From an uncultured Actinomycetes bacterium (GTDB lineage Bacteria > Actinomycetota > UBA4738 > JACQTL01), in the NCBI GenBank assembly GCA_963772375.1, contig CAVYXG010000001.1:856086-920085 (forward strand): a stretch of DNA of 64,000 nucleotides, given 5' to 3'. Under the pieces are notes generated by a model. That model was given only the letters and a program-made list of their open reading frames with translations. It did not search any database and was not told the DNA's origin. Shown in pieces: positions 32,001-53,379 of this stretch. The position numbers were made by a program, and so were the translations under genes. Numbering within the stretch: position 1 is the first letter of the stretch; every line of letters starts with the position of its first letter.

Positions 32001-34367
32001 AGGACGAACCGGCGTCTGCGCGGCCTGCTCGGTGCGGTCGCACTCTTTCTGGTGGTCGCGTTGATCGCCGCCGGCATCGCGCTCGTGCAGGGAGGCCATG
32101 CGCGGCGCTCGGCGACGGTCGCGCTTTCCCAGAGCCTCGGGGCCCAGGCGATCGCCGAGACACAGCTCGACACCGCACTGCTGCTCGCCGAGGAGGGCGT
32201 GAACCTGGACGACTCCCTACGAACGGAGAGCGACCTACTGGCTGTGCTGCTCCACAGCCCCTCAGCGATCCACGTCCTACATGTCGGCGGGATCGGCGCC
32301 CCTCCGGAGGACATCGTCGTGAGCCCCGACGGCGGGACGCTCGCCGTGCTGACCCGGGATCGCACCCTGCGGTTCTACGACACTTCGACGCTCCAGCCGA
32401 TTGGCAAGCCGGTGCACGACGTGCCCGCGTACAACTCCCGCAGGCCGGCGTTCACCCCCGACAGTTCCGGGCTCTGGGTCCTCCGCGGACCCGGGATCCA
32501 GATGATCAACGTTCGGACCGGCCGGGTCGAGAGCACGATCAGGCTCCACCAGGATGTGGAGAACGTCTACTCGCCCGTTCTTCTCTCTCGGGACGGCCGG
32601 GTCGTGTACCTCCAACTCGAGGGATGGGAGAGCGTCGCAGCGTGGAACACCTCGACGGGACGCCGCCTGGCCGAGGTCAACGTCCCCGGGCTGTCGCTCG
32701 GGATGCTCGCCCTCGCCCAGGAAGCGGGAGAGGTCGTGGCGCTCACGACCCAGGGCGGAGGGCGAATCCAGGTCCGGGACGGCAGGACGCTGGCCCTGGA
32801 GCGGTCGTTTCCCGTGCAGCTTCCTGCGGCGGACCAGTACCAGCTCGCCGTTTCACCGGACGGGCGCACGGCCGCTTGCACCCTGTTCCACCCCGGCGCC
32901 GACCAATCGATCCGATTCGTCGACCTTCGGACCGGCCAGGTCAGGAAGGGCGCCGGCGACCAGGCGGGCGAAGGCCAGGTCGCGTTCTCCCACGATGGCA
33001 GGACAGCCGTCAGCGTGACCGACGACGGCTTCAATATCTCTGTCTGGGATGTCCCTTCGGCCACGCAGGTTCGAACGCTGAGCGGCCACGCCGGAGAGAT
33101 CCTGCAGGCCGCCTTCGATCCCTCGGGGCGAACCCTTTACTCTGCAGCGGATGACGGGAACGTGTTCGCGTGGGATCTCTCGGGACATCGGAGCTTCGGT
33201 CGCTCGTTCACTGCCAGCCAAGGGTCATTCGGTGGGCCCAACGTCGGTCACCATTTCCCATACTTCTCCGCGTCCCCGGATGGGAAGAGCATCGCAGTCG
33301 CCCACGCGACGCAGTTCGATCCCGATGGGGGGGTCAGCACGGGCGGCGAGGTCAATATCGTCGACCTCGCTACCGGGCGGGTCACGACCCGGGTAAGGGT
33401 CGCGGGTCGAGTGCCCGGCATCGACTCGGTCATCTACGCGGAGTTCTCCCCGGACGGCACCGAACTCCTCGTCACCCCCGGCCCCTCGAGCAACGGAGAC
33501 ATCACCCTGTGGCGGTTGGATGGTCACACGGCCAGCCTCGTCCGCACGTTCACCGGACTCAGCGCGACCCCGGTTCGTGACGATAACGGGTTTTGGAACG
33601 CCCCCTGGGCGACGTTCAGCCCTAACGGCAAGTGGATCGCCGGGGTGGACCGACGCGAGAACGGCACCAGCCGAATGATGGAATGGGATGCCGCCACGGG
33701 ATCCGAGCGCGTGGCGCCCCTGGATCTCCATTGGACATCCACCGACGGCCTGCATTTCGATGGCCTCAACCAGAACGTGGTGTATAGCCCCGACGGGTCG
33801 TTGATTGCAACGTCCGTCTTGGGTGACCGTACTGTGATCGTGGACGCAAGGACGCTGAAGCCGGTCCGTACGCTGCCTGATCCAGAAGGGGTCGCGTTCG
33901 TCGCGTTCTCACCGACTAACGACAGGCTGCTCGCGGAGGGGTCGTCGAATGTGGGAATCGTTCGCCTGATTGACGTGACGACAGGCAAACAGGCGGCCGA
34001 AGTAACGGCCTCCAACCCGGGACTGTGGAGCGTCCAGTTCGACCACACCGGGAGCATGCTGCTGACAGATGCGCCGGATGGTGTGGCGCGGTTGTGGTCC
34101 GTCCCCGACCTCCAGCAGATCGGATCCGACCTTCCAGGCCTCTCTAGCGTGGTGGGGGCGGCCACTTTCGCGGGCCGGGGAAGGTCCACGATGGCCGTGC
34201 TCCTTTACGCGACCGGCACGGCGTTCGCATACACGGCGTCGCCCTCCGCGTGGGAGCGCCAGGCGTGCCTCGTGGCCGGTCGAAACTTCACGAAGGCGGA
34301 GTGGGCCCGATACGTCGGCGACCGTACGTACGAGGATGTCTGCCCTGAGTATCCGCCCGGATCCTGA
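29091..34367 (+). CDS. multidomain signal-transduction protein: SARP (OmpR-wHTH+BTAD) - Ser/Thr protein kinase - NB-ARC/STAND P-loop NTPase - TM helix - WD40 beta-propeller
   Basis: Starts MRFLVLGPLEV (SARP). Kinase motifs GEGAFGLVY, VAIK, HRDVKPGNVLL, DFG, APE. P-loop GPSGSGKSS. Single TM LLGAVALFLVVALIAAGIALV. Then many WD repeats (LSGHAGEILQAAFDPSGRTLYSAADDGNVFAWDL). 1758 aa. Confidence 0.85.
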   Translation: MRFLVLGPLEVTNAVGPIPLGGPKQRLVLANLAVRANAVVLAETLIDQLWGDEPPDSAKNTLQTYISHLRKALGPDRIEGRSSGYVLHLDPHELDATRFEQLLGEARAADGQPDRVGGILREALAMWRGSAFADLAVEGSLAGEIARLEELRLGAIEDRIAADLASGRHTGLIGELEGLTREHPLRERLWAHLMVALYRSGRQADALAAFRRARKLLAEELGVDPSPELQRLQDRILKQDPDLEVTGEPLRGYRLLDKIGEGAFGLVYRAVQPQVGREVAIKSIHPELANQPDFVRRFEHEAQVVARLEHPHVVPLYDYWRDPDGAYLVMRLLRGGSLEDLLEQGPLDSTRAATFLDQVAGALAAAHRQGVVHRDVKPGNVLLDEEGNAYLTDFGVALDAGAPEQTAGLMVRGTPAYLSPEQIRLEPATGQSDIYALGVVLYEMLTAEHPFPESSLRVLLDRHMHEPLPSARRVRPEIPPAVDLVIARATAKDAGGRFADPLEFAAAFRGAIQGTGARLAATEELRNPYKGLRAFLEADAGDFFGRDVVTRRLVERMAEPGASARFLCIVGPSGSGKSSVVKAGLVPALRRGVIAGSELWYIVEMMPGPHPLRELDTALLSVATSPQPTLVEELERDDLGLLRAVDRVLPDPSAELVIVVDQLEEVFTLVDDQVERARFLEAIVAAATHRMSRVRIVSTLRADFFDQPLSVRGFGDLLAARTEAITPMSPEELERAISGPAECVGLGIEPGLVAAMVADVVDRPGALPLLQYALTELVERDEVSSLSLESYRSIGGVSGALARRAERLYGAMDEPGRDACRQLFLRLVTLGEGTEDTRRRVRRSEIPAMDGATDGVIESFGRHRLLSFDRDALSREPTVEIAHEALLRQWPRLEDWLGEDAEARALRGHLIDAARQWDAGGRDDSELYRGARLAGALDFSSRDGRHLNELERSFVALSREASERETRRIRRTNRRLRGLLGAVALFLVVALIAAGIALVQGGHARRSATVALSQSLGAQAIAETQLDTALLLAEEGVNLDDSLRTESDLLAVLLHSPSAIHVLHVGGIGAPPEDIVVSPDGGTLAVLTRDRTLRFYDTSTLQPIGKPVHDVPAYNSRRPAFTPDSSGLWVLRGPGIQMINVRTGRVESTIRLHQDVENVYSPVLLSRDGRVVYLQLEGWESVAAWNTSTGRRLAEVNVPGLSLGMLALAQEAGEVVALTTQGGGRIQVRDGRTLALERSFPVQLPAADQYQLAVSPDGRTAACTLFHPGADQSIRFVDLRTGQVRKGAGDQAGEGQVAFSHDGRTAVSVTDDGFNISVWDVPSATQVRTLSGHAGEILQAAFDPSGRTLYSAADDGNVFAWDLSGHRSFGRSFTASQGSFGGPNVGHHFPYFSASPDGKSIAVAHATQFDPDGGVSTGGEVNIVDLATGRVTTRVRVAGRVPGIDSVIYAEFSPDGTELLVTPGPSSNGDITLWRLDGHTASLVRTFTGLSATPVRDDNGFWNAPWATFSPNGKWIAGVDRRENGTSRMMEWDAATGSERVAPLDLHWTSTDGLHFDGLNQNVVYSPDGSLIATSVLGDRTVIVDARTLKPVRTLPDPEGVAFVAFSPTNDRLLAEGSSNVGIVRLIDVTTGKQAAEVTASNPGLWSVQFDHTGSMLLTDAPDGVARLWSVPDLQQIGSDLPGLSSVVGAATFAGRGRSTMAVLLYATGTAFAYTASPSAWERQACLVAGRNFTKAEWARYVGDRTYEDVCPEYPPGS

Positions 34368-34722: not shown

Positions 34723-35940
34723 ATGCGGGTCGTGGGCGGACTCACGCGCGATGCATTGGCCGAGCGAGCGGGGGTCCCAACGGGCTACGTTAGCCGCCTG
34801 GTCGACCTCGACATCCTCAGCCCGAGCGACTCGGGCCAGCCCTTCTCCTCCAGTGACGTACGGAGAGTCCGCCTGGTGCACGGCCTCGAGGAAGGCGGGC
34901 TGCCGCTTGATGGAATCAGCAGTGCCGTCCGAAACGGAGATCTCTCATTCGAGTTCCTCGACCTCCCCAGCTGGGACTGGTACGGCGGGTTCGGGGGGAA
35001 GACCTACCGAGAGCTCAGCGCAGAGGCTGGTCTGAGCCTGGATCTGATGAAAGTCATTCGAGAGTCGATGGGATTTGCCCGTCCAGAGCCGCAGGATCCC
35101 GTCCACGAGGAAGACCTCGATCTGATCCCAATGGTGAAGATTGCCCTCGACGCCGGGGCGGACCCAGGGGCGATCCAGCGTCTGGTTCGAGTGTGGGGCG
35201 AGAGCATGCGCCGCATTGCCGAAGCAGCGGCGACCTTCTACCACGCCCAGATCGAGGTCCCGCTCCTTCGGTCGGGAATGAGCGAGGCCCAGGTGCTACA
35301 GGTTGCGAACGAAGCCGTCGCCGCGGGGATCCCCTACGTCGACCGTGCGCTCGCCTCCATGTACCACGGCCACTCGGAGCACACCTGGATGGCAGACGTG
35401 GTCGAGGCAGTGGAGGCCACCCTGGAGAAAGCGGGCCTTCATCACGCGGTGGTTGAACCACCGGCCATCTGCTTCCTCGATCTCTCCGGCTACACGCGGC
35501 TGACCGACGAGAAGGGGGACGAGGCCGCCGCCGAGATCGCGGCGACCCTCGGCGGATTGGTCCAGCGGAGCGCGAACGAGCATGGAGGCCGCCCGGTCAA
35601 GTGGTTGGGCGACGGCGTGATGGTCTACTTCACCGACTCCGACGGAGCCGTGATCTCCGCGCTGGAACTGGCCGATCTCGTGCCGAAGGCTGGCCTTCCG
35701 CCTGCCCACACGGGCATCGATACCGGCCCGGTGATCTTCCAAGACGGGGACTATTTCGGCCGGACCGTCAACACGGCCGCGAGAATCGCCTCTCACGCTG
35801 GATCTGGGGAGGTCTTGGTCAGTGACGACGTCGCGCACTCCGCGCAGAACCCCACCATAAGGTTCGTTGACGTCGGACTCGTCGAGTTGAAGGGCCTGCC
35901 GCGACCCATCCCACTGCACAGGGCCAGCCGCGTTTCGTAG
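34723..35940 (+). CDS. HTH-domain-containing class III adenylate/guanylate cyclase
   Basis: N-terminal HTH (LTRDALAERAGVPTGYVSRLVDL). C-terminal CHD (FLDLSGYTRLT...KWLGDGVMVYF...GRTVNTAARI). Confidence 0.8.
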   Translation: MRVVGGLTRDALAERAGVPTGYVSRLVDLDILSPSDSGQPFSSSDVRRVRLVHGLEEGGLPLDGISSAVRNGDLSFEFLDLPSWDWYGGFGGKTYRELSAEAGLSLDLMKVIRESMGFARPEPQDPVHEEDLDLIPMVKIALDAGADPGAIQRLVRVWGESMRRIAEAAATFYHAQIEVPLLRSGMSEAQVLQVANEAVAAGIPYVDRALASMYHGHSEHTWMADVVEAVEATLEKAGLHHAVVEPPAICFLDLSGYTRLTDEKGDEAAAEIAATLGGLVQRSANEHGGRPVKWLGDGVMVYFTDSDGAVISALELADLVPKAGLPPAHTGIDTGPVIFQDGDYFGRTVNTAARIASHAGSGEVLVSDDVAHSAQNPTIRFVDVGLVELKGLPRPIPLHRASRVS

Positions 35941-38280: not shown

Positions 38281-39621
38281 ATGGCCGGCCAGATGAGCGA
38301 CGCCCCGGAGACCCACTATGTCGCTGTGGGCGACGCCGACGTGGCGTATCAGACGGTCGGCGAGGGACCGGTTGACCTGTTGTTCTGCTATGGACTGGGC
38401 AGCCACGTTGACTTCATGTGGCAGATTCCTAGCGTCGCCGCGTTTCTGAACCGCTTAGCGTCAGGTTTCAGGCTCATCGTGTTCGACCGCCGAGGTACCG
38501 GTGCGTCTGATGGTGTTCCCCGTAACGCGGTTCCCACGTTGGAGGATTGGACCGAGGACATCGCGGCGGTGCTTGACGCAACGGGCTCCCGTCGGGCCGC
38601 CATCTTCGCCACTCTCGACACGGGTCCGATTGCGCTCCTGTACTCGGCGATGCATCCCGAGCGGGTGACTGGACTCGCGTTATTGAACACGAGCGCTCGG
38701 TTCATCGAGGCGGAGGACTACCCGATCGGCTTCACGCAAGAAGCCGCGGACGAGTTGGTGCAGAGCTTTGCGGCGGTGTGGGGAACACCCGAACTCATCG
38801 CGCTTGCTAATCCGAGCGCGGATCCGGAGTTCGTACAGTTCACTGCGCCGGTAATGCGCGCTTCGGCCACGCCTCGCAGCGCAGCCGCCCAATACCGCAA
38901 CGTCCTTGGAAACGATGTCCGTCAAGCGCTGCCGCTCATTCGGGTGCCCACGCTGGTTCTCAACGTCAAGGACCAACCGCTCGTCTCGATCGCCCAGGGT
39001 CGTTACCTTGCCGACCACATCGACGGAGCAACCTTCGTTGAACTGCCGGGTAGCGACCTTTCCTTTACTCCTGCCAATCTTGTGATCGCTGATGAGATTG
39101 CCGAGTTCCTGACCGGCGAACGGCCCGTGGTCGAGGTCGAGCGCATCCTCACCACCGTCCTGTTCACCGACATTGTCGGCTCGACAGAACGTGCAGGGTC
39201 TCTGGGAGATCAACGATGGCGCACCCTCCTCGATGCGCACGACAGGGCGGTGCGGGAACAGCTTCGTCGCTTCCGCGGTCGCGAGATCAACACCACCGGA
39301 GACGGATTTGTCGCTTCGTTCGACGGTCCAGCTCGGGCCATCCAGAGCGCTAAAGCGATCATCGAAGCCACGGGACGACTTGGAATCGAACTCCGAGCCG
39401 GACTGCACACCGGTGAATGCGAAGTCCGCGGCGACGACCTTGCCGGACTCGCGGTCCACATCGCCGCGCGGGTCGGCGCACTTGCGACATCCGGGGAAGT
39501 CCTCGTCTCTGTGACGGTCAAGGATCTGGTCGTTGGCTCCGGGATCGACTTCATTGATCGTGGGGAACACCACCTCAAAGGCGTCCCCGGCACCGTGAGA
39601 CTTTTCGCGGTCGACGGCTGA
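38281..39621 (+). CDS. alpha/beta-hydrolase-fold plus class III nucleotide cyclase fusion (LipJ-like architecture)
   Basis: N-terminal alpha/beta hydrolase fold with a non-canonical elbow (ATLDTGP). C-terminal CHD (VLFTDIVGST...TTGDGFVASF...GLHTGE). Confidence 0.8.
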   Translation: MAGQMSDAPETHYVAVGDADVAYQTVGEGPVDLLFCYGLGSHVDFMWQIPSVAAFLNRLASGFRLIVFDRRGTGASDGVPRNAVPTLEDWTEDIAAVLDATGSRRAAIFATLDTGPIALLYSAMHPERVTGLALLNTSARFIEAEDYPIGFTQEAADELVQSFAAVWGTPELIALANPSADPEFVQFTAPVMRASATPRSAAAQYRNVLGNDVRQALPLIRVPTLVLNVKDQPLVSIAQGRYLADHIDGATFVELPGSDLSFTPANLVIADEIAEFLTGERPVVEVERILTTVLFTDIVGSTERAGSLGDQRWRTLLDAHDRAVREQLRRFRGREINTTGDGFVASFDGPARAIQSAKAIIEATGRLGIELRAGLHTGECEVRGDDLAGLAVHIAARVGALATSGEVLVSVTVKDLVVGSGIDFIDRGEHHLKGVPGTVRLFAVDG

Positions 39622-39738
39622 AGGCGGGTTCGGCTCAGGACCCTTGAACACCCCGTTCGGACCGGTGTTGATGTAGGAGTCGACGAGGCGCTCCAGCTGG
39701 TCTCACCTGTTCCAGAAATCAGCGTGGCCGATGTACCC

Positions 39739-39781
39739 GGTGGGGGATCCCCCCTCTCGCACCCTCTTGAGCTGCGGATCT
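39739..39781 (+). repeat. degenerate tRNA-Leu 3'-end copy (T-loop deleted)
   Basis: GTGGGGGATCCCCCCTCTCGCACCCTCTTGAGCTGCGGATC matches the T-stem/acceptor/flank of the repeat family with an internal deletion. Confidence 0.5.
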
Positions 39782-40358
39782 CGCCCTGACGATCCTCGAC
39801 AAGGCCCGTCGACGACGAGCCACTCGGGGCGACAGACCCACACCTCGGTGAGCTTCCCATCGTGGACATACGAGACGACCGCCACGTTCGATTCGAGGGT
39901 CCGCCCCCCCGCGGGTTCGCTTCTGAGGCCGCAGCCACCCACCGCACATGCACCTGGGCCATGACCTCCCGGCCGCCGGGACAGGCCGGGCCAGGCTTGC
40001 CCTTGCCTCGGCCCGTGGTGCCGGCATTGGAGAACCGCTCCGTCCACACGCAGCAGGTCCACCACTTCGGGTGGGCATTGTGCATGAGGTCGAGGCACAT
40101 CCAGGCCACCACCTCGCGGGCCTCCGGCACCGGCTCGCCCTGACACCGGAAGTGGAGGGGCCGGGACCGCACGGAGTCCGGCGAAGGCGAGCCAGGTCAG
40201 CACGGCTGGCGGATGGCACCGATGCGCTGGTCAGAGCACGAATCGGAGTCTGGCGCCTTGAGGTATCGTACTTGTCCTTCACAGGGGGGCGGGGGTCTGT
40301 CCCCTTGGCACGTTCGGGAGGAGGTCGCCCATGGCGCCCTTCAGGAGGGAGGTCGCTC

Positions 40359-43106
40359 ATGGCACGTCGTATCGGATCCAGAGCCGGCGCACGGCTCCGG
40401 CGGGTCATGTGGCTGACCGCAGCACTGTCGCTCACGGTTCCGGCCGCTTTGCTAATCGGCCCGTCGAGCGCGATCGCGGAGGACTGCTCCTCGGGCGCGC
40501 ACTCGCTCTCGCCGCCCGGATCGCGGGTGTACCCCGAGATGGGCAACGGCGGCTACACGAGCGTCCACAGCGACGTCTACATCAACTACGACGCGATCGC
40601 GAACCTGTTCCTGCCCGGCACCCATGCCGACCTGGGGGTCACGTCGACCCAGTGCCTGACGGACCTCAGCTTCGACTTCGAGCGGACGAACGGCTCCACG
40701 GGCGGCACCGGGCCGAACTTCACCGTCAACTCCGTCGAGGTCAACGGTCAGCCGGCGACGTTCGCGTTCGTCCAGCCGACGTACCCGGGTGACCCGAACG
40801 GCGACAACGACCCGGACCCGGCCGCCCACGCGGTGTCGAACGTCAACCCGGTCAGCGCGACCAACCCCAACCCGCCCGCCTGCTCGCCCCAGACGAGCGG
40901 GAACACGCAGAACGGGACGCAATGCCCGGCGAACAAGCTCGTCGTGACGCCGGCCGCCCCGATCCCGAACGGCGCGTCCTTCGTGGTGACGGTCGACTAC
41001 ACGGGCCGGCCCGGGGTCCACGTGGACGGTGACGGCTCGACGGAGGGATGGTTCCGAATCTCTACCGCGGGCCAGGAGGGCTCGTTCGTCACGACCGAGC
41101 CCGTCGGCACCGACTCGTGGATGCCGCTGAACAACTTCCCGACGGCCAAGCCGACGTACGACTTCTACGACACGACCAACATCGGCAAGACGGCCATCGG
41201 CCCCGGCGAGCTCGTCGGCTACACGGCGCCGGTCGGAACCACGTACCAGGCCGTCCCGGCGCCGGCGAGCAACCCGCCGGACGCGAACTTCCCGGCCGGG
41301 TCGGTGACGTGGCACTGGCACTCCCCCGAGGGGATCGCCAACTACCTCGTCGAGAACTCGATCGGCCAGTACGACCTCTCTGCCCGCACAAGCCCGACGA
41401 GCGGCATCCAGTACTGGGAGGCCCAGGCGAACTCCATCACCGCGGCGCGCAAAGCGGTCAACAAGACCGCGATGGACAACCAAGAGGACATCACGACCTT
41501 CCAGAGCATGTTCAACGGGCCGTTCCCGCTCACGACCGATGGGGTCGTCGTGGGCACCCCGTCCGCCAGCTTCGAGGAGGAGATGCAGGGCAAGATCACC
41601 TTCGCCGGCGGACAGATCGGCGGCTCGACGGGAACCTCGCTCGGCACGTTTAACCACGAGAACATGCACCAGTGGTTCGGTGACAACGTCGCCGAGGACC
41701 AGTTCCGCGACACCTTCTGGAAAGAGGGCTGGGCCACCGTCGGTGAGTACCTGACGACGGCTCGGTCGGCCGCGACCACCGCCGGCGGGCTCAACACTCT
41801 GGCCGGCCAAGTCGCGTTCGACAACAGCCTGATCAACCGGTTCAACACGAACTACGGCTCGGGGAGCGGCTCCGCGTGGACGGGCGCGCCCTCGAACCCC
41901 TCCGTGACGAACCTGTTCAGCACGCAGAACACCTACACGCGGCCTGGAACCGCGTACCTGGCGCTTCGGCAGATCCTCGACGCGTCGATGACGCGGCCGG
42001 CGAGCGACCGCTGGATCGCGACGATGCAGAACATCCAGTCGACCTACGGCGGCGGCAACATCACCGAGCCGCAGCTCGAGGCCGCGTTCTTCCACTTCCT
42101 GCCGAACCAGAGCGCGGGGTGCAGCACCAAGCTCGACCAGTTCTTCACGCAGTGGTTCGACACGGCGTTCCCGGCGCCGAACAACTCGACGAACAAGCCC
42201 CAGATCACCGGGCCCGGCATCAACGCGGCCAACGGGGACCACTTCTACGACGACGCGAGCGCCTGTACGCGGGCCACCCAGACGATCACGTTCGGGTCGA
42301 TCGCCGACCGTACCTACGGCGACCCGGACTTCACCGTGAGCGCGTCCTCGGACTCGGGACTGCCCGTATCGTTCTCCGCGGCGGGGAACTGCACGATGGC
42401 CGACGCGACCACCGTCCACATCACGGGCGCCGGCTCGTGCACGGTGACGGCGTCCCAGGCGGGCGACGGCGTGTTCAAGCCGGCCTCGGTCGACCGGTCG
42501 TTCTCGATAGCCAAGGCCCCGACGACCACGTCCGTCGTCTCGTCGGTCAACCCCGCCAACAAGGGCCAGTCGGTGACCTACACGGCCACGGTCGAGGCGA
42601 CGCCGCCCTCTCTGGTCCCGCCGGGCACCGTGACGTTCAACGACAACGGCTCGGCCATCGGGTCGTGCACCGGCGTCGCGCTGAGCGCGGGCCAGGCCGT
42701 GTGCACGGTGAGCTACGCGAACACCGGCAACCACGCGATCACGGTCACGTACGGGACCACGACCGACTTCCTCGGCTCCACCTCCCCGGTGCTCGGGGAG
42801 ACGGTGGCCAAGTGCGGGTCGTCGCTGGCGGCCTGCAACCTGAACGGCGCCGACCTCCGGAACGCCGACCTGCACGGCGCCAACCTCCACGACGCGAACA
42901 TGAACAACGCGAACCTGTCCGGTGCCGATCTCGCGGGAGCGAACCTGCACAACGCGAACCTGAAGGGGGCCGACCTGTCGGGTGCGGACCTGACCGGTGC
43001 GAATCTCTCGGGGGCCAACCTCAACAAGGTCACGTGGTCCGACACCACCTGTCCAGACGGCACGAACAGCGACGCGGATGGGGGGACCTGCGTCCACAAC
43101 CTGTGA
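40359..43106 (+). CDS. secreted M1-like (gluzincin) zinc metallopeptidase with Ig-like domains and C-terminal pentapeptide repeats
   Basis: Signal peptide [45 protein letters not shown]-x18-E motif. Ig-like repeats ([20 protein letters not shown]... / [16 protein letters not shown]...). Pentapeptide run [70 protein letters not shown]. Confidence 0.8.
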
Positions 43107-43265
43107 GGAGGGCGCAAGGGGTCCTGTCGTGTGCGGGGGCTCGCGTGCACTCGACCGTGGTAACCGCGCTAGGCTGGGGCGCCTCTCTAGTGTCCTGAGT
43201 CAGAAGTTCACAGGATGTTCACGAGGATGTCCCCAGGCATGGCTCGCGTCGTGCCAGGATGCGGT

Positions 43266-43772
43266 ATGGCCCGAGGACGACCGCTCCAGGAGCTCGCGGT
43301 GAGCGAGGAGGACCGGCAGGTGCTGGAGCGGTTCACCCGCCGGACCACCACGTCGCAGGCCCTTGCCCTGCGATCGAGGATCGTCCTGCGATCGGCCGAG
43401 GGCGCCACCAACCGGGAGGTGGCCCGGCAACTGGAGGTGACGCCCCAGACCGTCGGGAAGTGGCGGGCCCGCTACATCGAACGAGGCGTCGAGGGCCTCC
43501 TGGACGAGCCCCGGCCCGGGGCCCCCCGGAAGGTCACCGACGACAAGGTGGAGGAGGTCGTGGTCAAGACCCTCGAGTCCAAGCCGACCGACTCCACCCA
43601 CTGGTCCTCAAGGGACATGGCCAAGCGAGTGGGGCTGTCGCAGTCCACCGTGGCCCGGATCTGGCGGGCGTTCGGACTGCAGCCGTGGCGGAGCGAGTCC
43701 TGGAAGCTCTCCACCGACCCCCAGTTCGCTGCACCGATGGGCAACCGACGAGCCAACCCGTCGGTTCGATGA
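43266..43772 (+). mobile_element. IS630-family transposase N-terminal fragment (copy A)
   Basis: HTH/winged-helix region LQELAVSEEDRQVLERF...NREVARQLEVTPQTVGKWRARY...STVARIWRAFGL. No DDE domain follows. Confidence 0.6.
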
Positions 43773-43785
43773 CCTGTACAACCTC

Positions 43786-45220
43786 GTGTACGACCCGGCG
43801 TTCCTAGTGGTGGCATGGCGCCGGGTCCGTGGCAACAAGGGCGCCCGCACGGCCAGGGGTGGACGGGCAGACCGCCCGATCCATCGAGGCCGGACGGGGC
43901 GTGGAGGCGTTCTTGGACGATCTGCGGGCCGACGTCAAGGCCCGTACGTTCACCCCACTCCCCGTGCGGGAGCGGACCATCCCCAAGCCAGGAGGAACGA
44001 AGGTGAGAAGGCTGGGGATTCCCACGGTCCGCGACCGCGTCGTCCAGGCGGCCCTCAAGCTGGTGCTCGAGCCCATCTTCGAGGCGAGCTTTCAGCCGTG
44101 TTCGTACGGCTTCCGTCCGAAGCGCCGGGCCCAGGACGCCATCGCCGAGGTGCACTTCTTCGCCTCTCGTACCTACGAGTGGACGGTAGAAGGCGACATC
44201 GAGGCGTGCTTCGACCAGCTGTCGCACTCCGGCATCATGGACCGGCTGCGGCGGCAGATCGGAGACAAGCGGGTCCTGGTCCTGGTGAAGGCGTTCTTGA
44301 AGGCCGGCATCCTCAACGAGGGTGGGGCCGACGAGCACCCGATCACCGGCACGCCCCAAGGGGGCATCCTCTCACCGCTGCTCGCCAACATCGCCCTGTC
44401 CGTCCTCGACGATCACTTCGTCGAGGCGTGGGAGGAGGCGATGTCCACCGAGTACGCACGCCACAAGCGGCGCCGACAGGGACTGGCCAACTACCGCCTG
44501 GTCCGCTTCGCGGACGATTTCGTGGTGCTGGTGTCCGGGACCAGGGAGCACGCGGAGGCGTTGCGTGAGGAGGTGGCGACGGTGCTCGCGCCGATGGGAC
44601 TGCACCTGTCGGCGGAGAAGACGAGGATCAGCCACATCGACGAGGGGTTCGACTTCCTGGGCTTTCGCATCCGGCGGGAGCTCAAGAGGGGGACGGCGAA
44701 GCGCCACGTCTACACCTACCCTTCGAAGTCCGCGCTCGCGGCGGTCAAGGCGAAGGTGCGGGCGCTGACCCGACAGGCATGGAACCAACCGCTCAGCACC
44801 CTGATCCGCCGGTTGAACCCGGCGCTTCGGGGGTGGACCAACTACTTCCGGCACGGGGTGTCGAAGGCGACGTTCAGCTACCTCCGGTCCTTCGTCTGGT
44901 ACCGGGTGATCCGCTGGCTTCGCCGCAAGCACCCTCGGGCCTCATGGAAGGAACTGCGGCGGCGATACCTCGATCGGTGGTGGCCGCGGCACGGCGAGAA
45001 GGAGCTGTTCAACCCCGGCGCGGCGGTCGTCAGCAGATACCGCTACCGGGGGAACCGCATCCCCTCGCCGTGGTCGGAGCGGACCGGGCTGACGGCGGGG
45101 TAGTCACCGGCATGGATCGTGGAGAGCCGGATGCGTGGAGACGCGCACGTCCGGTTCGGAGGTGCGGGTCGGGGAAACGGGCTGATCGAAAGACGGCACC
45201 GCGCCCCGGCCCGACCCTAC
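43786..45220 (+). mobile_element. group II intron remnant: RT/maturase ORF (N-terminal frameshift) plus domains V-VI; 5' domains I-III missing
   Basis: RT motifs (RRLGIPTVRDRVVQ, FVRFADDFVV, maturase/X domain). Frame change near 43855 between the AWRRVRGNKGA and VDGQTA segments. Domain V GAGCCGGATGCGTGGAGACGCGCACGTCCGGTTC at 45123-45156. Intron ends ...CTAC at about 45220. Confidence 0.7.
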
Positions 45221-45802
45221 TCGTCGGCGGAGATCACGAACTCCCCAGCGTGCAGGCGCCTTCCCTTCCACCGCCGCTCGTACAGGTCGAGCGCCCGGGC
45301 GGCCTTGGGCTCGAAGTCGGGATCGCGGGGGAAGATCCAGCTCCTGAAGGTCCACGGCCGGATGGCGTCCTGCGACAGCCACCGCCAGATGGTCGAGTCC
45401 GACACGCTCGCCACGATCCCCCGGCGCAGGACCTCGGAGCGGATGTCGGGGACGTGCAGGCGGGAACGTGGGACGCCGAGCTCCGTCGGGAGCTGGCAGG
45501 CCAGTGCTTTGACCTCAACGACCACCAGAGGGGGAAAACGAGCTGGGTCTTCCCCGGCGGGGCCGTTCATCCAGTCCGGCAAGCCCCTCCTCGAGGAAGC
45601 GCTTGCGCCACTTCCACACGAGTTCGCGAGGAGTGTCGAGGCGGTGGGCGATCTCCTCGACTGGGACGTCATCGGCCGCCATGAGCACGATCTTCGCTCG
45701 GATCACATCTCGATACGGTAACGAGTACTTCCGGGCCCGTGCCTCCAGGACAGCCCGGTCCAGTGGGCCCAGACGCACGGTCAGTGGGCTCGTTCGCGAC
45801 AC
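45217..45802 (-). mobile_element. IS630-family transposase fragment (copy B), truncated at the group II intron junction
   Basis: N-terminal HTH (95-aa ORF) and, after a frameshift, the middle part ending ...GEFVISADE exactly where the intron 3' end abuts. Confidence 0.6.
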
Positions 45803-46518: not shown

Positions 46519-47296
46519 TCAGCCCAGGGGCACCACTCCCTTGCCTGACGTGGCCTCCGCGAAGCGGAAGCTCTTCTCGCCCTCGGTCACGACGACATGG
46601 GCATGGTGGAGCAGCCGGTCGACGGTCGCCGTGGCGAGCGTCTTCGGCATGAGCTCGTCGAAGCCCGCCGGGTGGAGGTTCGAGGACACGGCCACCGAGC
46701 GCCGCTCGTAGGCCGCGTCGATGAGCCGGTAGAACGCCTCCGCGGCCTCCGCCCCCACCGGGAGCATCCCGATGTCGTCGACCACGATGAGATCGGCCCG
46801 GCAGATCCGGGCGATGGCCCTCGCCACCGAGTCGTCGGCGCGGTGGCGTCGGATGATCGCTCCGAGCGTCTCGAGGGAGAACCAGCTCACCCGGAGCCCC
46901 CGCTCCACCGCGGCGCTGCCGAGCGCCTCGAGGAAGTGCGACTTCCCGGTTCCCGACGGACCGCACAGCGCCAGGTTCTCCCGGCGCTGCACCCACTCGA
47001 GCGTCCGCAGGGCGTGCTGGGTGGGACGGGGGATCGAGGAGGCCTGCTCGTCCCACGCCTCGAAGGTCTTGCCGGAGGGAAACCCGGCGCTCCGACGTCG
47101 GTTGGCCATCATGGCCCGATCCCGTCCCGCCACCTCCTCGGCCAGCAGGACCCGCAAGGCTTCGGCCGGGTCCCACCGCTGGGCCTTGGCCGTGGCGAGG
47201 ACGTCGCGGGCCGCCGAGCGCAGGTACGGCAGGCGCAGACGGCGGAGGTGGGCGTCGACCTCGTCGAGGGGAGAGGGATCGATGCTCGAACTCATC
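46519..47296 (-). CDS. istB: IS21-family transposition helper ATPase IstB
   Basis: MSSSIDPSPL... Walker A GPSGTGKSH, DDIG Walker B. 258 aa. Confidence 0.85.
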
Positions 47297-48776
47297 GTCC
47301 GAACCCCTCCCACGCGGTGGTCCCCCGTTGCAGGCTGTGGGCCTCCGTGGCCTGCGAAGTCGGTCCATCCGCCGATGTGTCGTGAGCGAGGATCGCTGCG
47401 AGGTCTCCGTCGGCGAACCGCCCGCACGTCGCGGCGGTCCCCAGGGCTCGGTCGAGCGCCTCCGGCCCGTACAGCTTCGAGAGCTCGAGGGCCTCGGCCA
47501 TCTTGGAGCGGATGCGCGCGGCGCCGACCGATGCCGCCTCGATGAGCCACTGCGTCGCGCCGTTCCCCAGGGCGAGGAACGCCTGCTCCTCGGGCGTGCG
47601 AGCTCGGGGGACCCTGGCCAGGGGCCCGGAGGGCCGCTGCGGGTAATGCGCGTCGTCGATCATGGGTCGGCCCGGCGTCGATCGGCGGTGGCGGGCCACC
47701 TCCCGTGCTCCGGCAGAGGGGTCGACCGAGACCACCACCACCTGGTCCCCCTCGGTGCGGACCCACACCCGGCGGCCGATGAGCGAGTACGGCACCGAGT
47801 ACAGGACGCTGTGGAACGACACCACGGAGTTCGACGCGACCGTGCGGGTCTGCCCGAACGCGGTGGTGTACGCCTCGCCGGGGACAGGATGCAGGCGCCG
47901 TCGCTCCTCGGCCAGCAGCTCCGCCGGCGGACGGCCCGTGGCCCGGTGGGGCCGGGCGTTGACCCGTTCGCAGAACGCCTCGCACGCTGCCCGGAGCTCT
48001 TCGAAGGAGCGGTACGCCGGCAGCAGGTTCGCCTCGGTGGGGACGAGGTCGGCCTTGGCGATGCGCACCGTTGCCTCCGAGCCGCCCTTGGACTCGGGGT
48101 CGGCGGGGACGCACGTCGCGATGGTCAGGCCGTAGTGCCGGGCCGCGGCCACGATCTCGGGATGGCGAACGGGGATGCGGGCGATGTGGGTGGTGGTCAC
48201 GGTCTTCTCGTTGTCGGTGAGGCCGTACGTCGGGACGCCCCCGAACGCCCGAAGGGTCCGGTCGATCCCCGCGACCACGGTGGGGAGCGTCTTGTCCAGG
48301 ATCGGGAACACGACGCGGTAGCGGCTCCACGCCAGCCAGGCGCAGAACAACTGCGTGGGGCCCTCGGGGACCTCCGGCCCGGTGCCGTAGTCCCACTGGA
48401 ACCACATCCCGGGCTCGGGGATCCACGGGCGGTACACCCGCAGCCGTCCCTCGCGGAAGCGCTGCCTGGCCCCGGCCACGGCCCGCCTGGTCGTCCGCTC
48501 CGAGCCCTCGTAGCCGAGCGCGATGAGCTTCTCGTGGCAGCGGTCGGCGCGGATCTTGCCGTGGGAGCGCTCCACCCACTCCTCGATCTTCGGCAGGAGT
48601 GGATCGATGAGCTTCGGACGGTCGATCCCCGAGGATGGCGACCGCCCCCCGTCCCGGAGCGCGACGTAGCGCTCGACGGTGTGATGGTCGACCCCCGCGA
48701 GCTCCGCCGCGGCGCGGTAGGAGCCAGTCAGGTCGAAGGCCTCCAGCATGTCCATGATCTCCTCGTCAGACTTCAT
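47292..48776 (-). CDS. istA: IS21-family transposase IstA
   Basis: 494 aa. HTH N-terminus. DDE region (WFQWDYG...TDNEKT). Confidence 0.85.
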   Translation of the reverse strand: MKSDEEIMDMLEAFDLTGSYRAAAELAGVDHHTVERYVALRDGGRSPSSGIDRPKLIDPLLPKIEEWVERSHGKIRADRCHEKLIALGYEGSERTTRRAVAGARQRFREGRLRVYRPWIPEPGMWFQWDYGTGPEVPEGPTQLFCAWLAWSRYRVVFPILDKTLPTVVAGIDRTLRAFGGVPTYGLTDNEKTVTTTHIARIPVRHPEIVAAARHYGLTIATCVPADPESKGGSEATVRIAKADLVPTEANLLPAYRSFEELRAACEAFCERVNARPHRATGRPPAELLAEERRRLHPVPGEAYTTAFGQTRTVASNSVVSFHSVLYSVPYSLIGRRVWVRTEGDQVVVVSVDPSAGAREVARHRRSTPGRPMIDDAHYPQRPSGPLARVPRARTPEEQAFLALGNGATQWLIEAASVGAARIRSKMAEALELSKLYGPEALDRALGTAATCGRFADGDLAAILAHDTSADGPTSQATEAHSLQRGTTAWEGFGR

Positions 48777-50933: not shown

Positions 50934-53267
50934 TCAGCGGATTCGGCCGGCCTCGGTGACGGCGTCGCTCCCGTCGCCCGCCCGGGACGGCACCAGGCTG
51001 AACGCGCCCTCCTCCTCCTGCGCGTTGTGCAGACGGAGGACGGCGTAGAGCCCGTACAGCAGGCGCCGAAGCTCGACCACGTCCTCGGGCTGGACGTGGT
51101 CGTCGTCGAGTTCGGTGAGCAACCGCCGCAGCCGGCTCGCCTGGTGCTCGATCTCCGCGTGGGTCCGGCTCATCGCCGCGGTTGCGTCGGATCCGCCCAG
51201 TGCCCTGGCGACCAGCGGCACGAGCAACTCCTCCTCGGCACGCTCGTGCGGGAGCAGTTCGCCATCGAGTCGTTCGAGCAGCGTTCGCGCCGGTCCGAGG
51301 TGACAGTCCTCCGTCGAAAGTGCGTCGGCCACGGAACGGAACTGCTCGACCACCGGCATGACCGCGTCGTGCTCGGCCCGGAGCCGGTGCGCGATGGCGA
51401 CGTCGGCCGGCGCCATGGTGATGGTGTGGACGCTCCCCGGGAGCACCGCTCGAAGCGCGATCCCGATCGCCAGCACGTCGATGACCTCCTGAACGATCGC
51501 GCCGGCCGCGGGCGGGAGCAGTCCGCTGGCGGCCGCGACCATCGCGACGAGTGAGAGCCCCATGCCGACGACCACCGCCTGCAGGGCGATGCGCCTGGCC
51601 CGGCGCGCGATGAGGATCGCGTCGGCTAGCGCGTCGATCCGGTCGACCGTGAGCACGATGTCGGCCGCCTCGGACGAGGCCGTCGCTCCGCGTGCGGCCA
51701 GGGCGACGCCGACCCCGGCAGCGGCCAGGGCGGGGGCGTCGTTCACGCCGTCGCCGATCATGATTGTTGCGGCGTGTGCGGCCTCGGCTCGGATCGCGGC
51801 GAGCTTCTCGGCCGGCTCGCAATCGGCGAGCACCGTGTCGACCCCGACGATCCGCCCGATCGTTTCGGCGGTGTCGGCCCGGTCGCCGGTCGCCAGGACC
51901 ACCCGGCTGATACCGGCCTCGCGCAGGGCGCGAACCATCCGCGGCGCGTCGGGCCGGATCGGGTCCTCCAGCAGGAGCGCGCCGGCGGGCTCGCCGTCCA
52001 CGGCAACGAACACGGTGAGCGATCCGTCGAGGTCCGCTCGGCGGCGCACCTGTCGCACCCAGACGGGTGGGGCGTCACCGACCACCCAGGCGGCCTTGCC
52101 CAGTTTCACGTCGTGTCCGTCGACCCGCCCCCGAAGCCCGGAGCCGTGCTCTTCGTTGACGTCCTGGGGCATCGTGAGCGCGAGACCACGGCGGGTGCCT
52201 GCAGTGACGATCGCTCCGGCCAGGACGTGCGCGGACACCTGGTCGAGCGACGCGGCCAGTCGGAGCAGCTCATGGGCATCGACGCCGCTCGCAACGACCA
52301 CGTCGGCCAGCGTGGGACGACCCTGGGTCAGCGTGCCCGTCTTGTCGAATACCATGACGTGCCCCGCGGCCAGGCGTTCCAGCGCACTGCCGCCCTTGAC
52401 CACGACGCCGATGTGCGCCGCGCGGGACAGACCGGACATGATCGCGATGGGGGCGGCCAGCAGCAGCGGGCAGGGCGTCGCGACGACGAGGACGGCCACG
52501 GCTCGGACCGGGTCCCCGCTCACCGCCCATGCCGCGCCGGCGATCACCACGGTGAAGGGGACGAACAGGATGGCGAACCGGTCGGCGACGCGCACGAACG
52601 GCGCCGACGACGCCTGCGCCTGTTCCACGAGGCGAACGAGGCCCGCATAGGTGGACTCCTCGGCCGGCGAGGTGGCGACGAAGTCGATCGGCGGTCCTGC
52701 ATTCACCACACCGCTGCGAACTCCGTCGCCCGCTGGGCGCTCGACCGGGAGGGACTCGCCGGTCAACGCGGACTCGTCCAGCACCGCGGTGGACAGCAGC
52801 CGCCCGTCCACCGGCACGATCTCACCCGTGGCCACCAGCAGGCGATCACCCCTGATGACGTCGTTCGCCGGGATCTCGACCACGGCGCCCCGATCCAGTC
52901 GCCGGGCCGTCCGGGGGGCTCGCTCCACCAGCAGGCTCAGCTCGCGTCGCGCCCTCGTCGCCGCCCTGGCCTCGAGCAACTGACCGCTCGCGAGCATGAC
53001 CGTGATCATGGCTCCGGCGAACAGCTCGTCCACAGCAAGAGCACCCACCAGAGCGAGCACAGCGATGATGTCGACGCTCGGCTGACGGCGCCGGAGCGAG
53101 GCGACCGTCGAGACGACCGAGAAGGCGAGGCCGAGCACAGTCCCGGCGATCCAGAACACGTCGGCTGGCGTTTCGGCATCGGCGAACCACGCCACGCCGC
53201 CCGCCACGAGCAGCACCGTCGAAGCGACGAAGAGCAGCAGCTCCCTGCGATCGCGCAACCAGTCCAC
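50934..53267 (-). CDS. P1B-5-type heavy-metal P-type ATPase with C-terminal hemerythrin domain
   Basis: DKTGTLT, GDGVNDAPAL and a TM4 TPCP motif. The C-terminal roughly 140 aa have a hemerythrin/HHE pattern. The start is uncertain (GTG 53267 chosen). Confidence 0.8.
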   Translation of the reverse strand: MDWLRDRRELLLFVASTVLLVAGGVAWFADAETPADVFWIAGTVLGLAFSVVSTVASLRRRQPSVDIIAVLALVGALAVDELFAGAMITVMLASGQLLEARAATRARRELSLLVERAPRTARRLDRGAVVEIPANDVIRGDRLLVATGEIVPVDGRLLSTAVLDESALTGESLPVERPAGDGVRSGVVNAGPPIDFVATSPAEESTYAGLVRLVEQAQASSAPFVRVADRFAILFVPFTVVIAGAAWAVSGDPVRAVAVLVVATPCPLLLAAPIAIMSGLSRAAHIGVVVKGGSALERLAAGHVMVFDKTGTLTQGRPTLADVVVASGVDAHELLRLAASLDQVSAHVLAGAIVTAGTRRGLALTMPQDVNEEHGSGLRGRVDGHDVKLGKAAWVVGDAPPVWVRQVRRRADLDGSLTVFVAVDGEPAGALLLEDPIRPDAPRMVRALREAGISRVVLATGDRADTAETIGRIVGVDTVLADCEPAEKLAAIRAEAAHAATIMIGDGVNDAPALAAAGVGVALAARGATASSEAADIVLTVDRIDALADAILIARRARRIALQAVVVGMGLSLVAMVAAASGLLPPAAGAIVQEVIDVLAIGIALRAVLPGSVHTITMAPADVAIAHRLRAEHDAVMPVVEQFRSVADALSTEDCHLGPARTLLERLDGELLPHERAEEELLVPLVARALGGSDATAAMSRTHAEIEHQASRLRRLLTELDDDHVQPEDVVELRRLLYGLYAVLRLHNAQEEEGAFSLVPSRAGDGSDAVTEAGRIR

Positions 53268-53379
53268 CCATTCATTATTGGCCGACGTCGGGGGGTTGCA
53301 GCTCGTGCTTCGGATACCCGGTCCATCCTCGAGCGGCGGCGCGGCTCCGTCCCCCGCCCCCGACCCGGCGACTCGCCGA

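Follow-up and report, generated by a model that had tools for sequence, protein, structure and literature searches.

The characterised enzyme closest to the peptidase described here is the M1 enzyme of Deinococcus radiodurans (M1dr; PDB 6A8Z, 6IFF, 6IFG and 6KOY-6KP1; Agrawal et al. 2019, 2020, as cited in bioRxiv 10.1101/2023.05.30.542994). It consists of an N-terminal beta domain and a thermolysin-like domain and has no C-terminal helical domain. The classical M1 enzymes (E. coli PepN and human APN, ERAP1, IRAP and LTA4H) share the catalytic fold and the zinc ligands, and additionally have the site enclosed by a lid, a C-terminal ARM-like domain; the classical aminopeptidases also carry a literal GxMEN motif, GAMEN.

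Pentapeptide-repeat proteins (PRPs) are recognised by at least 8 contiguous A(D/N)LxX pentapeptide repeats, and lumenal members have been described (PMC8145042). Caulobacter YjbI is a secreted PRP in which two Cys pairs flank the beta-helix; it is zinc-responsive and is removed by proteolysis under zinc stress, its charged C-terminal tail is needed for function, and outer-membrane insertion is described (PMC12864828). Proteins of this type, including Rfr32 (2G0Y/2F3L) and At2g44920 (3N90), are stand-alone chains, about 150-200 aa long, that carry a signal peptide of their own and an extracytoplasmic quadrilateral beta-helix of at least 5 coils, with a Cys pair at each end.

In a stretch of 64,000 nucleotides from an uncultured actinomycete (the window), one gene joins parts that resemble both systems. 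We consider it probable that its product is an exported modular M1-type zinc peptidase, likely an aminopeptidase, with an Ig-like spacer and an acquired cassette made of a Big_3_5 domain and a PRP helix.

Gene and domain architecture

The open reading frame (40359..43106, forward strand) encodes 915 aa and a stop codon, and the same ATG was chosen as the start when genes were called independently on a Logan contig. From Table 1, the protein has five parts: a signal peptide, an M1-fold core, an Ig-like beta-sandwich, a Big_3_5 Ig domain and pentapeptide repeats. It contains 14 Cys, 12 of which are invariant or at least 90% conserved in either the family alignment (64 homologs) or the cassette alignment (40 proteins). 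The HMM searches proposed in the preliminary description, which was made from the sequence alone, gave a mixed outcome in Pfam: Peptidase_M1 was marginal, Big_3_5 and Pentapeptide were clear, and the other Ig-like module (aa 637-722) had no match at E<=1. In NCBIfam, PRP and pepN models were the only ones matched, all below cut-off.

Table 1. Features of the gene and of the repeat that precedes it (positions in the window; residues of the 915-aa product).
Feature	Position	Strand	Residues	Basis or remark
Upstream copy of the SD-ATG repeat, GGAGGTCGCCCATGGC	40320..40335	+		GGAGG-N6-ATG
Downstream copy of the SD-ATG repeat, GGAGGTCGCTCATGGC	40348..40363	+		Functional Shine-Dalgarno GGAGG, 6-nt spacer, start codon ATG 40359
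Signal peptide	40359..40478	+	1-40	Hydropathy; analogous homolog N-termini
M1 N-terminal beta domain	40479..41393	+	~41-345	Profile alignment to 6a8z, fold match, invariant residues
Thermolysin-like catalytic domain	41394..42266	+	~346-636	AF2, Foldseek
FEEEM	41571..41585	+	405-409	Profile alignment to human APN, invariance
Zinc-binding/catalytic motif H433-E-N-M-H437-x18-E456	41655..41726	+	433-456	Sequence, Pfam, alignments
Y526 in TYTRPG	41934..41936	+	526	Probable transition-state Tyr
Ig-like beta-sandwich 1	42267..42524	+	637-722	Cys 678 and 694; AF2, homologs
Ig-like domain 2 (Big_3_5)	42525..42806	+	723-816	Cys 770 and 782; Pfam, AF2
N-cap Cys pair C819-x6-C826 and 13 pentapeptide repeats	42807..43028	+	Repeats 826-890	Pfam, AF2, cassette alignment
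C-cap and tail, then stop codon	43029..43106	+	891-915	Cys 898 and 911; cassette alignment

The M1 peptidase core

The zinc motif HENMH occupies aa 433-437 within the context HQWFGDNV...FWKEGWA, and E456 follows H437 by exactly 18 residues, so the exact gluzincin M1 spacing that had been pointed out is correct. The same HENMH-x18-E arrangement occurs in 151 of 157 related loci. The Pfam match to Peptidase_M1 (PF01433), at 28.0 bits, exceeds the cut-off of 27.7 by a margin of 0.3 bits and covers aa 432-474 only. When a profile of the family was compared with PDB sequences, M1dr was the best match (E 8e-13), and APN, IRAP and ERAP were found at 1e-5 to 1e-3. The AF2 model is confident over aa 60-720, with pLDDT mostly >90 in the catalytic domain. 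When it was searched with Foldseek, the best PDB matches were 6ifg/6a8z (E 6e-24, TMt 0.82), then ERAP1, IRAP, APN and LTA4H, and the best 50 PDB matches were M1 enzymes throughout. Alignment of the HExxH region to a non-peptidase fold had been named as a result that would refute the description; the sequence profile and the predicted fold agree on M1 enzymes, and the description of the core as M1-like holds.

M1dr and the query share HExxH-x18-E in the context HQWFGD...EG(F/W)A and a two-domain core without the M1 C-terminal helical domain; in the query the Ig domains come directly after the catalytic domain. Identity is only 17% to M1dr, although it is the best match in both sequence profile and fold, and 11-14% to the classical enzymes, from which the query also differs in having neither the lid nor a literal GxMEN. 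Relative to the 430-residue Deinococcus enzyme, the query adds a signal peptide, about 170 residues of conserved insertions (one of them, at aa ~140-190 of the N-terminal beta domain, is family-specific), the 14 Cys and the C-terminal Ig and PRP modules, and has FEEEMQ where GxMEN stands.

Among the 64 homologs, E247, E407, E408, H433, E434, H437 and Y526 are invariant, as is R528, and E456 is at least 90% conserved. The TYTRPG segment is collinear with SAYFRGA of 6a8z in an alignment stretch without significance on its own; Y526 is probably the transition-state-stabilising Tyr of M1 enzymes, judging from this position and its invariance.

Exopeptidase motif and specificity

The preliminary description had noted that GxMEN was not seen and had proposed an endopeptidase or a divergent aminopeptidase. 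It was found that GxMEN is indeed missing from the 915-aa protein, but the absence appears to be only literal. The corresponding position is filled in the family by an invariant S/A-F-E-E-E-M-Q, and when the profile is aligned with human APN, E408 falls on the Glu of GAMEN. F405, E407, E408, M409 and Q410 are invariant in the 64 sequences, FEEEMQ is present in 74 of 77 genomic loci, and FEEEM forms a beta strand in the AF2 model. E247 (codon at 41097-41099) lies in a stretch aligned to a conserved N-domain motif of M1dr and is likely the counterpart of the residue that binds the substrate N-terminus in M1 enzymes; the segment around it has AF2 pLDDT <50. Since E408 is aligned with the GAMEN glutamate, aminopeptidase activity is favoured over endopeptidase activity, and with E247 considered as well, the divergent aminopeptidase appears the likelier of the two proposals. 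This assignment of specificity is not firm, because the literal GxMEN is missing and the E247 segment is modelled at pLDDT <50.

The Ig-like domains and the pentapeptide-repeat helix

Both Ig-like modules that had been proposed are present. The first (aa 637-722) is a confident beta-sandwich in the AF2 model, is common to the query and its closest M1-like homologs, and recurs as a tandem-repeat unit in PASTA and RCC1 proteins. The second is identified by Pfam as Big_3_5 (PF16640; 45 to 48.8 bits vs cut-off 35.5, aa 728-816) and is likewise a confident beta-sandwich, with pLDDT about 96.

The repeat region scores 78.6 bits against a cut-off of 20.2 in PF00805. The number of canonical consecutive units is 13 (aa 826-890), or 14 when the closing VTWSD turn is counted, rather than about 15 as had been estimated; they make about 3.5 coils and exceed the 8 contiguous repeats by which PRPs are recognised. 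The cassette model has pLDDT 95.5 (95-98 in the repeat region), and it superposes on Np275, Rfr23 and At2g44920 with RMSD of 0.4, 0.5 and 0.7 A, respectively, over 72-74 columns. As modelled, the pentapeptide-repeat beta-helix is therefore genuine by comparison with solved PRPs, lumenal ones among them. Several His and Asp lie on the helix surface. The C819/C826 pair is invariant in the 40 cassette proteins, and together with C898/C911 the flanking pairs are all invariant or at least 90% conserved, as are W, C, P, D, G, T, N, S and the last C of the C-cap. The protein ends in ...GGTCVHNL, 4 residues beyond the last Cys. A disulfide is probable at each helix end.

It had also been stated that PRPs are usually cytoplasmic DNA mimics. 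This is too narrow: PRPs that are secreted or lumenal form an acknowledged class (PMC12864828, PMC8145042), and the same cassette lies at the end of many further proteins, among them several with a signal peptide or lipobox. The query resembles the YjbI-type proteins in its extracytoplasmic quadrilateral helix with a Cys pair at each end, and the secretion signal of that group appears to be present for the fusion protein as a whole. Nevertheless, the helix here has 3.5 coils, is the C-terminal module of an enzyme and has a distinct CPDG-type cap. The PRP module is analogous to YjbI and is not a member of the YjbI group, because the charged C-terminal tail is missing.

A recurrent cassette

The Big_3_5 domain and the helix belong together as a cassette (aa 723-915), consisting of Big_3_5, a C-x6-C segment (CxxLAGCNL), the repeats and a CPDG-type end. 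Dozens of other proteins, secreted or lipoprotein-like, carry it as well. They are a sample and no full census, since the homolog search with aa 639-915 was dominated by repeat words and did not list the query's own protein. A signal peptide or lipobox is present in about 15 of the 25 cassette proteins that start with Met, a CPDG-type motif ends 38 of 120 module matches, and the other domains are of extracellular type (HYR, X25, PKD, DUF11, SBBP). For example, P0156 (Acidimicrobiales), P0208 (Trebonia) and P0160 are 52-60% identical to the query over aa 723-915 and have the same four Cys and C-terminal end, but the N-terminal parts of proteins of this kind are non-catalytic (HYR, X25, PKD, DUF11, SBBP or extra Big_3_5), with no peptidase. 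A cassette-profile search of species representatives returned 219,260 matches at E<=1e-3; the best 150 are giant multi-Big_3_5 proteins that gave no information on fusion partners, and a regex scan of these 150 found no CPDG tail and no HExxH-x18-E. On the sequences compared, the cassette recurs at the C-terminus of extracytoplasmic proteins of Actinomycetota.

Relatives of the core and rarity of the fusion

The core belongs to a large, uncharacterised FEEEMQ-type family of soil Actinomycetota and Chloroflexota, with 313 matches among species-representative genomes and >418 in metagenomes. The relatives come from Thermoleophilia, Actinomycetes and Chloroflexia from soil, and they have signal peptides, HENMH-x18-E and FEEEMQ in place of GxMEN. 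Those compared in detail, such as an 'M1 family aminopeptidase' of Gaiellaceae and an 'Ig-like domain repeat protein' of Kouleothrix, match the query in their invariant residues and in having a signal peptide, with cores 55-77% identical to it. The nearest also share the first Ig-like domain, and divergence from the query begins within or after the second. About two thirds of the relatives stop after the catalytic domain, and the rest have varied Ig-type tails (He_PIG, Big_3_5, Big_13, CHB_HEX_C_1 or HYR). Pentapeptide repeats were found in none of the roughly 275 relatives examined.

Phylogenetic profiling of this domain combination had been proposed, and its result is divided: the core is common and the cassette recurrent, while their fusion is single among these relatives. 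Pentapeptide repeats on a secreted protease had been called unusual; this is right for the M1-type partner, of which there is no second case in the same set, and does not hold for the secretion of a PRP itself. The fusion is a rare domain shuffle of known parts and no new kind of system, since the cassette recurs in other secreted proteins and secreted Cys-flanked PRPs have already been described.

Export and the gene start

The N-terminus has an n-region with 5 Arg, an h-region of 19 residues (V16-G34, mean hydropathy about 1.9) and a c-region PSSAIA, with a putative cleavage site between AIA and ED. In about 50 homologs, analogous signal peptides precede a conserved CSSGAH(T/S)L; they are typically short with AxA-like ends, and a variable linker separates them from CSSGAH. 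The earlier statement that the protein is secreted is upheld at the level of very probable export from the cytoplasm, because the N-terminus is signal-peptide-like and conserved in kind across homologs, and the 14 Cys are mostly conserved. Two other readings were considered. The lipoprotein reading was rejected: the conserved Cys43 is preceded by A-E-D, which is no lipobox, and the homologs have no lipobox either. For Tat export, LRRVMWL is only weakly like a twin-arginine motif and most homologs have no RR, and Sec export is favoured for these reasons.

A 22-bp tandem duplication of the ribosome-binding site and ATG had been reported before the gene. The duplication is real and lineage-specific, but its extent and arrangement differ: two copies of 16 nt (about 24 nt when one indel is allowed), 15/16 identical over the 16 nt, start 28 nt apart with 12 nt between them, so that the direct repeat is not strictly tandem. 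The pattern has 3 matches in the window against 0.21 expected. The sequence of the repeat is identical in an independent assembly, and the repeat is missing from 80 related loci. The ATG of the upstream copy (40331) lies in another frame than the gene, and the Arg-rich ORF of 153 aa that begins there is probably not a gene. This ATG was rejected as the true start because of its frame and because the Arg-rich product would have no signal peptide.

A scan for promoters and terminators around the gene gave nothing beyond chance. In the 740-bp upstream intergenic region, neither Rfam nor Pfam (the latter run on small ORFs) gave a match.

Alternative explanations

The strongest competing view of the core, which we judge unlikely, is an endopeptidase or oligopeptidase: without the lid and with FEEEM for GxMEN, the open cleft would take internal bonds of larger substrates. 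The missing literal motif, the missing helical domain with Ig domains straight after the catalytic domain, the ~170 inserted residues and the poor modelling of the E247 region would all suit it. It is opposed by the invariance of E408 and its alignment with the GAMEN Glu, and by the invariant E247 inside the stretch aligned to the N-domain motif of M1dr. To our knowledge, all characterised M1 peptidases are exopeptidases, the lid-less Deinococcus enzyme included, which we also count against this view. Moreover, the PDB titles for the Deinococcus enzyme name crystal structures whose site is occupied by single amino acids and by a tripeptide. At the other end of the chain, the hydrophobic segment could be an uncleaved signal anchor, giving a membrane-tethered ectopeptidase that is not released and whose Ig-PRP arm faces away from the membrane. 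Its 19 residues at the hydropathy given above are enough to span a membrane, but a Pro and a small-x-small motif (AIA) follow them and the homologs have typical short signal peptides with AxA-like ends, and we give the anchor a rather small chance.

For the repeat module, a regulatory role by analogy with YjbI seems improbable to us. The module might be a metal-responsive or protease-labile cap, or an intramolecular partner controlling access to the active site; the zinc response and the two flanking Cys pairs of YjbI-type PRPs (PMC12864828), the surface His and Asp and the fact that the partner is a zinc enzyme speak for it. Against it, most proteins that carry the cassette have no catalytic domain, the peptidase does without a tail in two thirds of its family, and the tail that YjbI requires is missing. 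The view that the repeats are a cytoplasmic DNA mimic of the Qnr/MfpA type, and the N-terminus no signal peptide, is effectively refuted already: the NCBIfam matches to Qnr and MfpA models are weak and sub-threshold, at 17-27 bits where the cut-offs are 240-500; the coils number only about 3.5, compared with about 8-10 in Qnr-type dimers; the helix is capped by conserved Cys pairs; and signal peptides are conserved in the peptidase and cassette families alike. An assembly chimera, or a pseudogene in decay, is also very improbable. Such a view could point to the single occurrence of the fusion and to the mobile elements directly downstream (an IS630-like fragment, a group II intron and an IS21 element). 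However, nothing interrupts the ORF, GC3 is 0.91-0.99 in each domain, the catalytic and structural residues are all intact, the two parts meet at a natural domain boundary where the cassette also begins in other proteins, and an independent assembly reproduces the 5' part of the gene.

Proposed function and significance

In the reading that we prefer, a Sec-type signal peptide would export the protein from the cytoplasm, and the mature enzyme would be a two-domain M1 core with no C-terminal helical lid. Zinc would be held by H433, H437 and E456, water activated by E434 and the transition state stabilised by Y526. The free N-terminus of the substrate would probably be gripped by E408, the GAMEN-Glu position in FEEEMQ, together with E247, and an aminopeptidase role is proposed because of this grip; such an enzyme may trim extracellular peptides for nutrient scavenging in soil. 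Behind the core, a non-catalytic arm would begin with the Ig-like spacer, as in the nearest relatives, and continue with the cassette, presumably gained as one unit: Big_3_5 and the short PRP beta-helix with a probable disulfide closing each end. The cassette would most likely hold the enzyme on a polymer of the cell envelope or the environment, or may merely stabilise the exposed end.

A bolder version, which we offer as speculation and consider doubtful, is that Big_3_5, the disulfide-capped short PRP helix and the CPDGTNS tail form an unrecognised portable module of Actinomycetota for cell-surface retention or ligand binding, a monoderm counterpart of the envelope-embedded YjbI, of which this would be the first case tethering an enzyme. 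Separately, and equally doubtful, the FEEEMQ lid-less M1 family may have a specificity unseen in classical M1 enzymes, e.g. towards basic N-termini, as three Glu in a row stand at the S1 edge.

In other respects the gene shows the usual way in which secreted hydrolases exchange their C-terminal modules. It draws attention to a large soil-bacterial clade of exported lid-less M1-type peptidases with the FEEEMQ variant of the exopeptidase motif. It also provides a concrete, testable case for the role of secreted PRP helices outside the cell, a question recently opened by the work on YjbI (PMC12864828), as the PRP module is here placed on an enzyme, and the activity and location of that enzyme can be compared between forms that have the module and forms that lack it.

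Peptidase core

The presence of an M1-type zinc peptidase is borne out by the HENMH-x18-E motif, the family profile and the PDB fold matches, all of which are M1. In the HMM searches suggested by the preliminary description, Pfam gave a Peptidase_M1 match at aa 432-474 (28.0 bits, just over the cut-off of 27.7), a Big_3_5 match at aa 728-816 (45 bits) and a pentapeptide-repeat match at aa ~820-892 (78.6 bits); the NCBIfam matches were all below threshold. More than 1,600 database entries are related to the core, with 55-77% identity across the first 63-75% of the query. Species-representative genomes contain 313 core matches (Gaiellaceae, Solirubrobacterales, Jatrophihabitantaceae, Streptosporangiaceae, Nocardioides and Chloroflexia; mostly soil MAGs), and metagenomes add at least 418 more. 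HENMH-x18-E occurs in 151 of 157 related loci (77 genomic and 80 metagenomic), and FEEEMQ in 74 of the genomic ones. When 64 family members were aligned, E247, F405, E407, E408, M409 and Q410 were invariant in the N-domain and FEEEMQ region, as were H433, E434, H437, Q438, W439, G441, D442, Y526 and R528 around and after the zinc site, and E456 was conserved in at least 90%.

The family profile matches the two-domain M1 peptidase of Deinococcus radiodurans with an E-value of 8e-13, and APN, IRAP and ERAP with 1e-5 to 1e-3. The Deinococcus alignment spans the zinc site and the N-domain motif (TTEPvG..WMPLNnhP versus LSEPHGTRGFLPCNDHP). The AF2 model has pLDDT >90 over most of aa 60-720, and instead of a non-peptidase fold for the zinc-motif region it matches M1 peptidases, with 6ifg and 6a8z best (E 6e-24, TMt 0.82, 17% identity) and only M1 aminopeptidases among the remaining PDB matches. 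The M1 C-terminal helical lid is absent from the query, and Ig-like domains follow directly behind the catalytic domain.

The preliminary description reported that GxMEN is missing and left open an endopeptidase or a divergent aminopeptidase. The literal motif is indeed absent, but the conserved variant FEEEM (aa 405-409) appears to retain the key glutamate: asFEEEMq lies opposite aG-AMENw in the human APN profile alignment, with E408 at the GAMEN glutamate position. In M1 enzymes, the free amino group of the substrate is held by the GAMEN glutamate and an N-domain Glu or Gln. Since both positions appear to be filled in the query, by E408 and E247, we favour an aminopeptidase with a variant exopeptidase motif over an endopeptidase. 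The model is weak around E247 (pLDDT <50).

The M1 N-domain contains an insertion specific to the family (aa ~140-190, including PPACSPQ and GTQCPANK), which has low pLDDT (48-63) and no equivalent in the alignment with the Deinococcus enzyme. Pro, Gly or Asp is invariant at many positions of the insertion, which also contains H157 and the Cys pair 175/189. The invariant aa 223-232 nearby look like a candidate metal-binding loop.

Export and C-terminal arm

The N-terminus resembles a signal peptide, with 5 Arg among residues 1-15, then 19 hydrophobic residues and P-SSAIA|ED; no lipobox was found. Less probably, the hydrophobic stretch is an uncleaved signal anchor. In about 50 homologs, an equivalent signal peptide is followed by a variable linker and a conserved CSSGAH(T/S)L opening the mature domain. 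Twin arginines are unconserved among the homologs, which favours Sec over Tat export. Of the 14 Cys in the mature protein, 12 are invariant or conserved in >=90% of sequences (family alignment: C43, C99, C175, C189, C588, C636, C694; cassette alignment: C770, C782, C819, C826, C898, C911). The mature protein is low in Lys, Arg and Glu and high in Thr, Ser, Asn and Gly. N-terminus, homolog signal peptides, cysteines and composition all fit an extracytoplasmic protein.

Pfam and the structure models bear out two Ig-like modules and a real pentapeptide beta-helix. Ig1 (aa 637-722) is a confident beta-sandwich in the AF2 model, and no Pfam model matches it at E<=1. The nearest homologs P0002 and P0009 share it directly after the core (45-49% identity). 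Elsewhere the unit (consensus QTITFG...YGDPDF.VSA.ASSGL.VSF.A.G.C....TVH.TGAGSCT.TASQ.G...Y..A) forms abundant tandem arrays in metagenomic proteins with PASTA or RCC1 domains. The cassette of Big_3_5 domain, repeat helix and tail (aa 723-915), modelled with 39 cassette homologs, has a mean pLDDT of 95.5, and its repeat region superposes at 0.4-0.7 A on Np275, Rfr23 and the thylakoid-lumen protein At2g44920. The repeats are consecutive as described, but number 13-14 rather than 15, with 13 canonical pentapeptides at aa 826-890 (~3.5 coils). The helix is capped by C819-x6-C826 on the N-side and by VTWSDTTC898 ... C911 on the C-side, after which VHNL ends the protein.

Gene start and neighbourhood

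A longer in-frame alternative opens at 39948. ATG 40359 is the better start, because GGAGG with a 6-nt spacer precedes it, signal-peptide-like sequence begins there, and a gene prediction made independently on a Logan contig (run ERR11718635) uses the same position. GC3 is 0.91-0.99 per domain (0.73 in the short signal-peptide segment), from which the whole frame looks native and translated.

The reported 22-bp tandem RBS+ATG duplication exists as a direct repeat, not a strictly tandem one: copies GGAGGTCGCCCATGGC and GGAGGTCGCTCATGGC lie 28 nt apart with 15/16 identity, and similarity reaches ~24 nt if one indel is allowed. Across the window the pattern has 3 matches, where 0.21 would be expected by chance. 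An independent assembly also contains the two copies, and among 80 related loci no comparable repeat lies near the gene start. With its full SD+ATG, the upstream copy opens an out-of-frame 153-aa ORF that overlaps the true start, and could be a decoy start site lowering expression; it could also be a neutral slip duplication.

Features of the peptidase gene and its surroundings (window coordinates)
Feature	Coordinates	Strand	Remarks
Signalling protein	28833-34367	+	1,844 aa; Trans_reg_C, BTAD, Ser/Thr kinase, nSTAND1 NTPase (388 bits), WD40 beta-propellers
Adenylate/guanylate cyclase 1	34723-35940	+	upstream of peptidase gene
Adenylate/guanylate cyclase 2	38281-39621	+	upstream of peptidase gene; fused N-terminal alpha/beta-hydrolase domain
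Intergenic region	39622-40358		~740 bp; no Rfam match, promoter-like site or Pfam-matching ORF
Repeat, upstream copy	40320-40335
Repeat, second copy	40348-40363
Peptidase gene	40359-43106	+	915 aa
N-domain insertion	40776-40928
Ig1	42267-42524
IS630-like transposase fragment	43215-43772	+	N-terminal HTH_32, HTH_28, HTH_29 (both fragments)
Group II intron RT/maturase ORF	43829-45103		RVT_1 116 bits, GIIM 82 bits; intron span 43829-45220
Intron_gpII domain V/VI	45122-45220		Rfam, 48.9 bits
IS630-like transposase fragment	45217-45802	-
IS21-family element	46519-48776	-
IstB-like ATPase of IS21 element	within 46519-48576	-	152 bits
IstA-like transposase of IS21 element	47292-48773	-	rve, Mu-transpos_C_2
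P-type (E1-E2) ATPase	50934-53540	-	C-terminal hemerythrin HHE cation-binding domain

The gene is followed immediately by IS630-like, group II intron and IS21 sequences. The intron begins ~700 bp downstream and is bracketed by the two IS630-like fragments in opposite orientations; together they look like a nest of decayed mobile elements.

A common cassette in a rare fusion

Dozens of other proteins share, as a conserved unit with 44-60% identity, the arrangement of Big_3_5, (K/R)C..LAGCNL, repeats and a tail ending in (H/N)L. The tail motif is terminal in 38 of 120 module matches, and about 15 of 25 tail-bearing module proteins starting with Met have a signal peptide or lipobox. Their other domains (HYR, X25, PKD, DUF11 and SBBP) are non-catalytic and of extracellular type. 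As an extracellular cassette, the module is common among these bacteria. Its fusion to the peptidase is unique among the ~275 relatives examined in the survey of this domain combination: pentapeptide repeats are absent from the 119 best database relatives and from the ORFs at 77 genomic and 80 metagenomic loci, and no metagenomic match reaches past query residue 748. About two thirds of the family stop ~214 aa past FEEEM and are tail-less; tails of other members carry He_PIG, Big_3_5, Big_13, CHB_HEX_C_1 or HYR. In the simplest history, an Ig1-bearing peptidase would have gained the cassette through recombination at the Ig1/Ig2 boundary.

The argument that the fusion is anomalous since pentapeptide-repeat proteins are usually cytoplasmic DNA mimics does not hold. 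The Qnr and MfpA models score far under threshold against the query. Secreted pentapeptide-repeat proteins form an acknowledged class: the orthologs of YjbI carry a signal sequence together with two helix-flanking Cys pairs, and YjbI acts at the Caulobacter cell surface (PMC12864828); non-cytoplasmic examples also include Rfr32, At2g44920 and the SV2C luminal domain (PMC8145042). [quoted passage not shown]

The original observation is thus confirmed with small corrections, and its interpretation partly supported. The fusion offers a way to study experimentally what secreted pentapeptide-repeat modules do, and the query also draws attention to a clade of secreted M1 peptidases that lack the lid and are uncharacterised.
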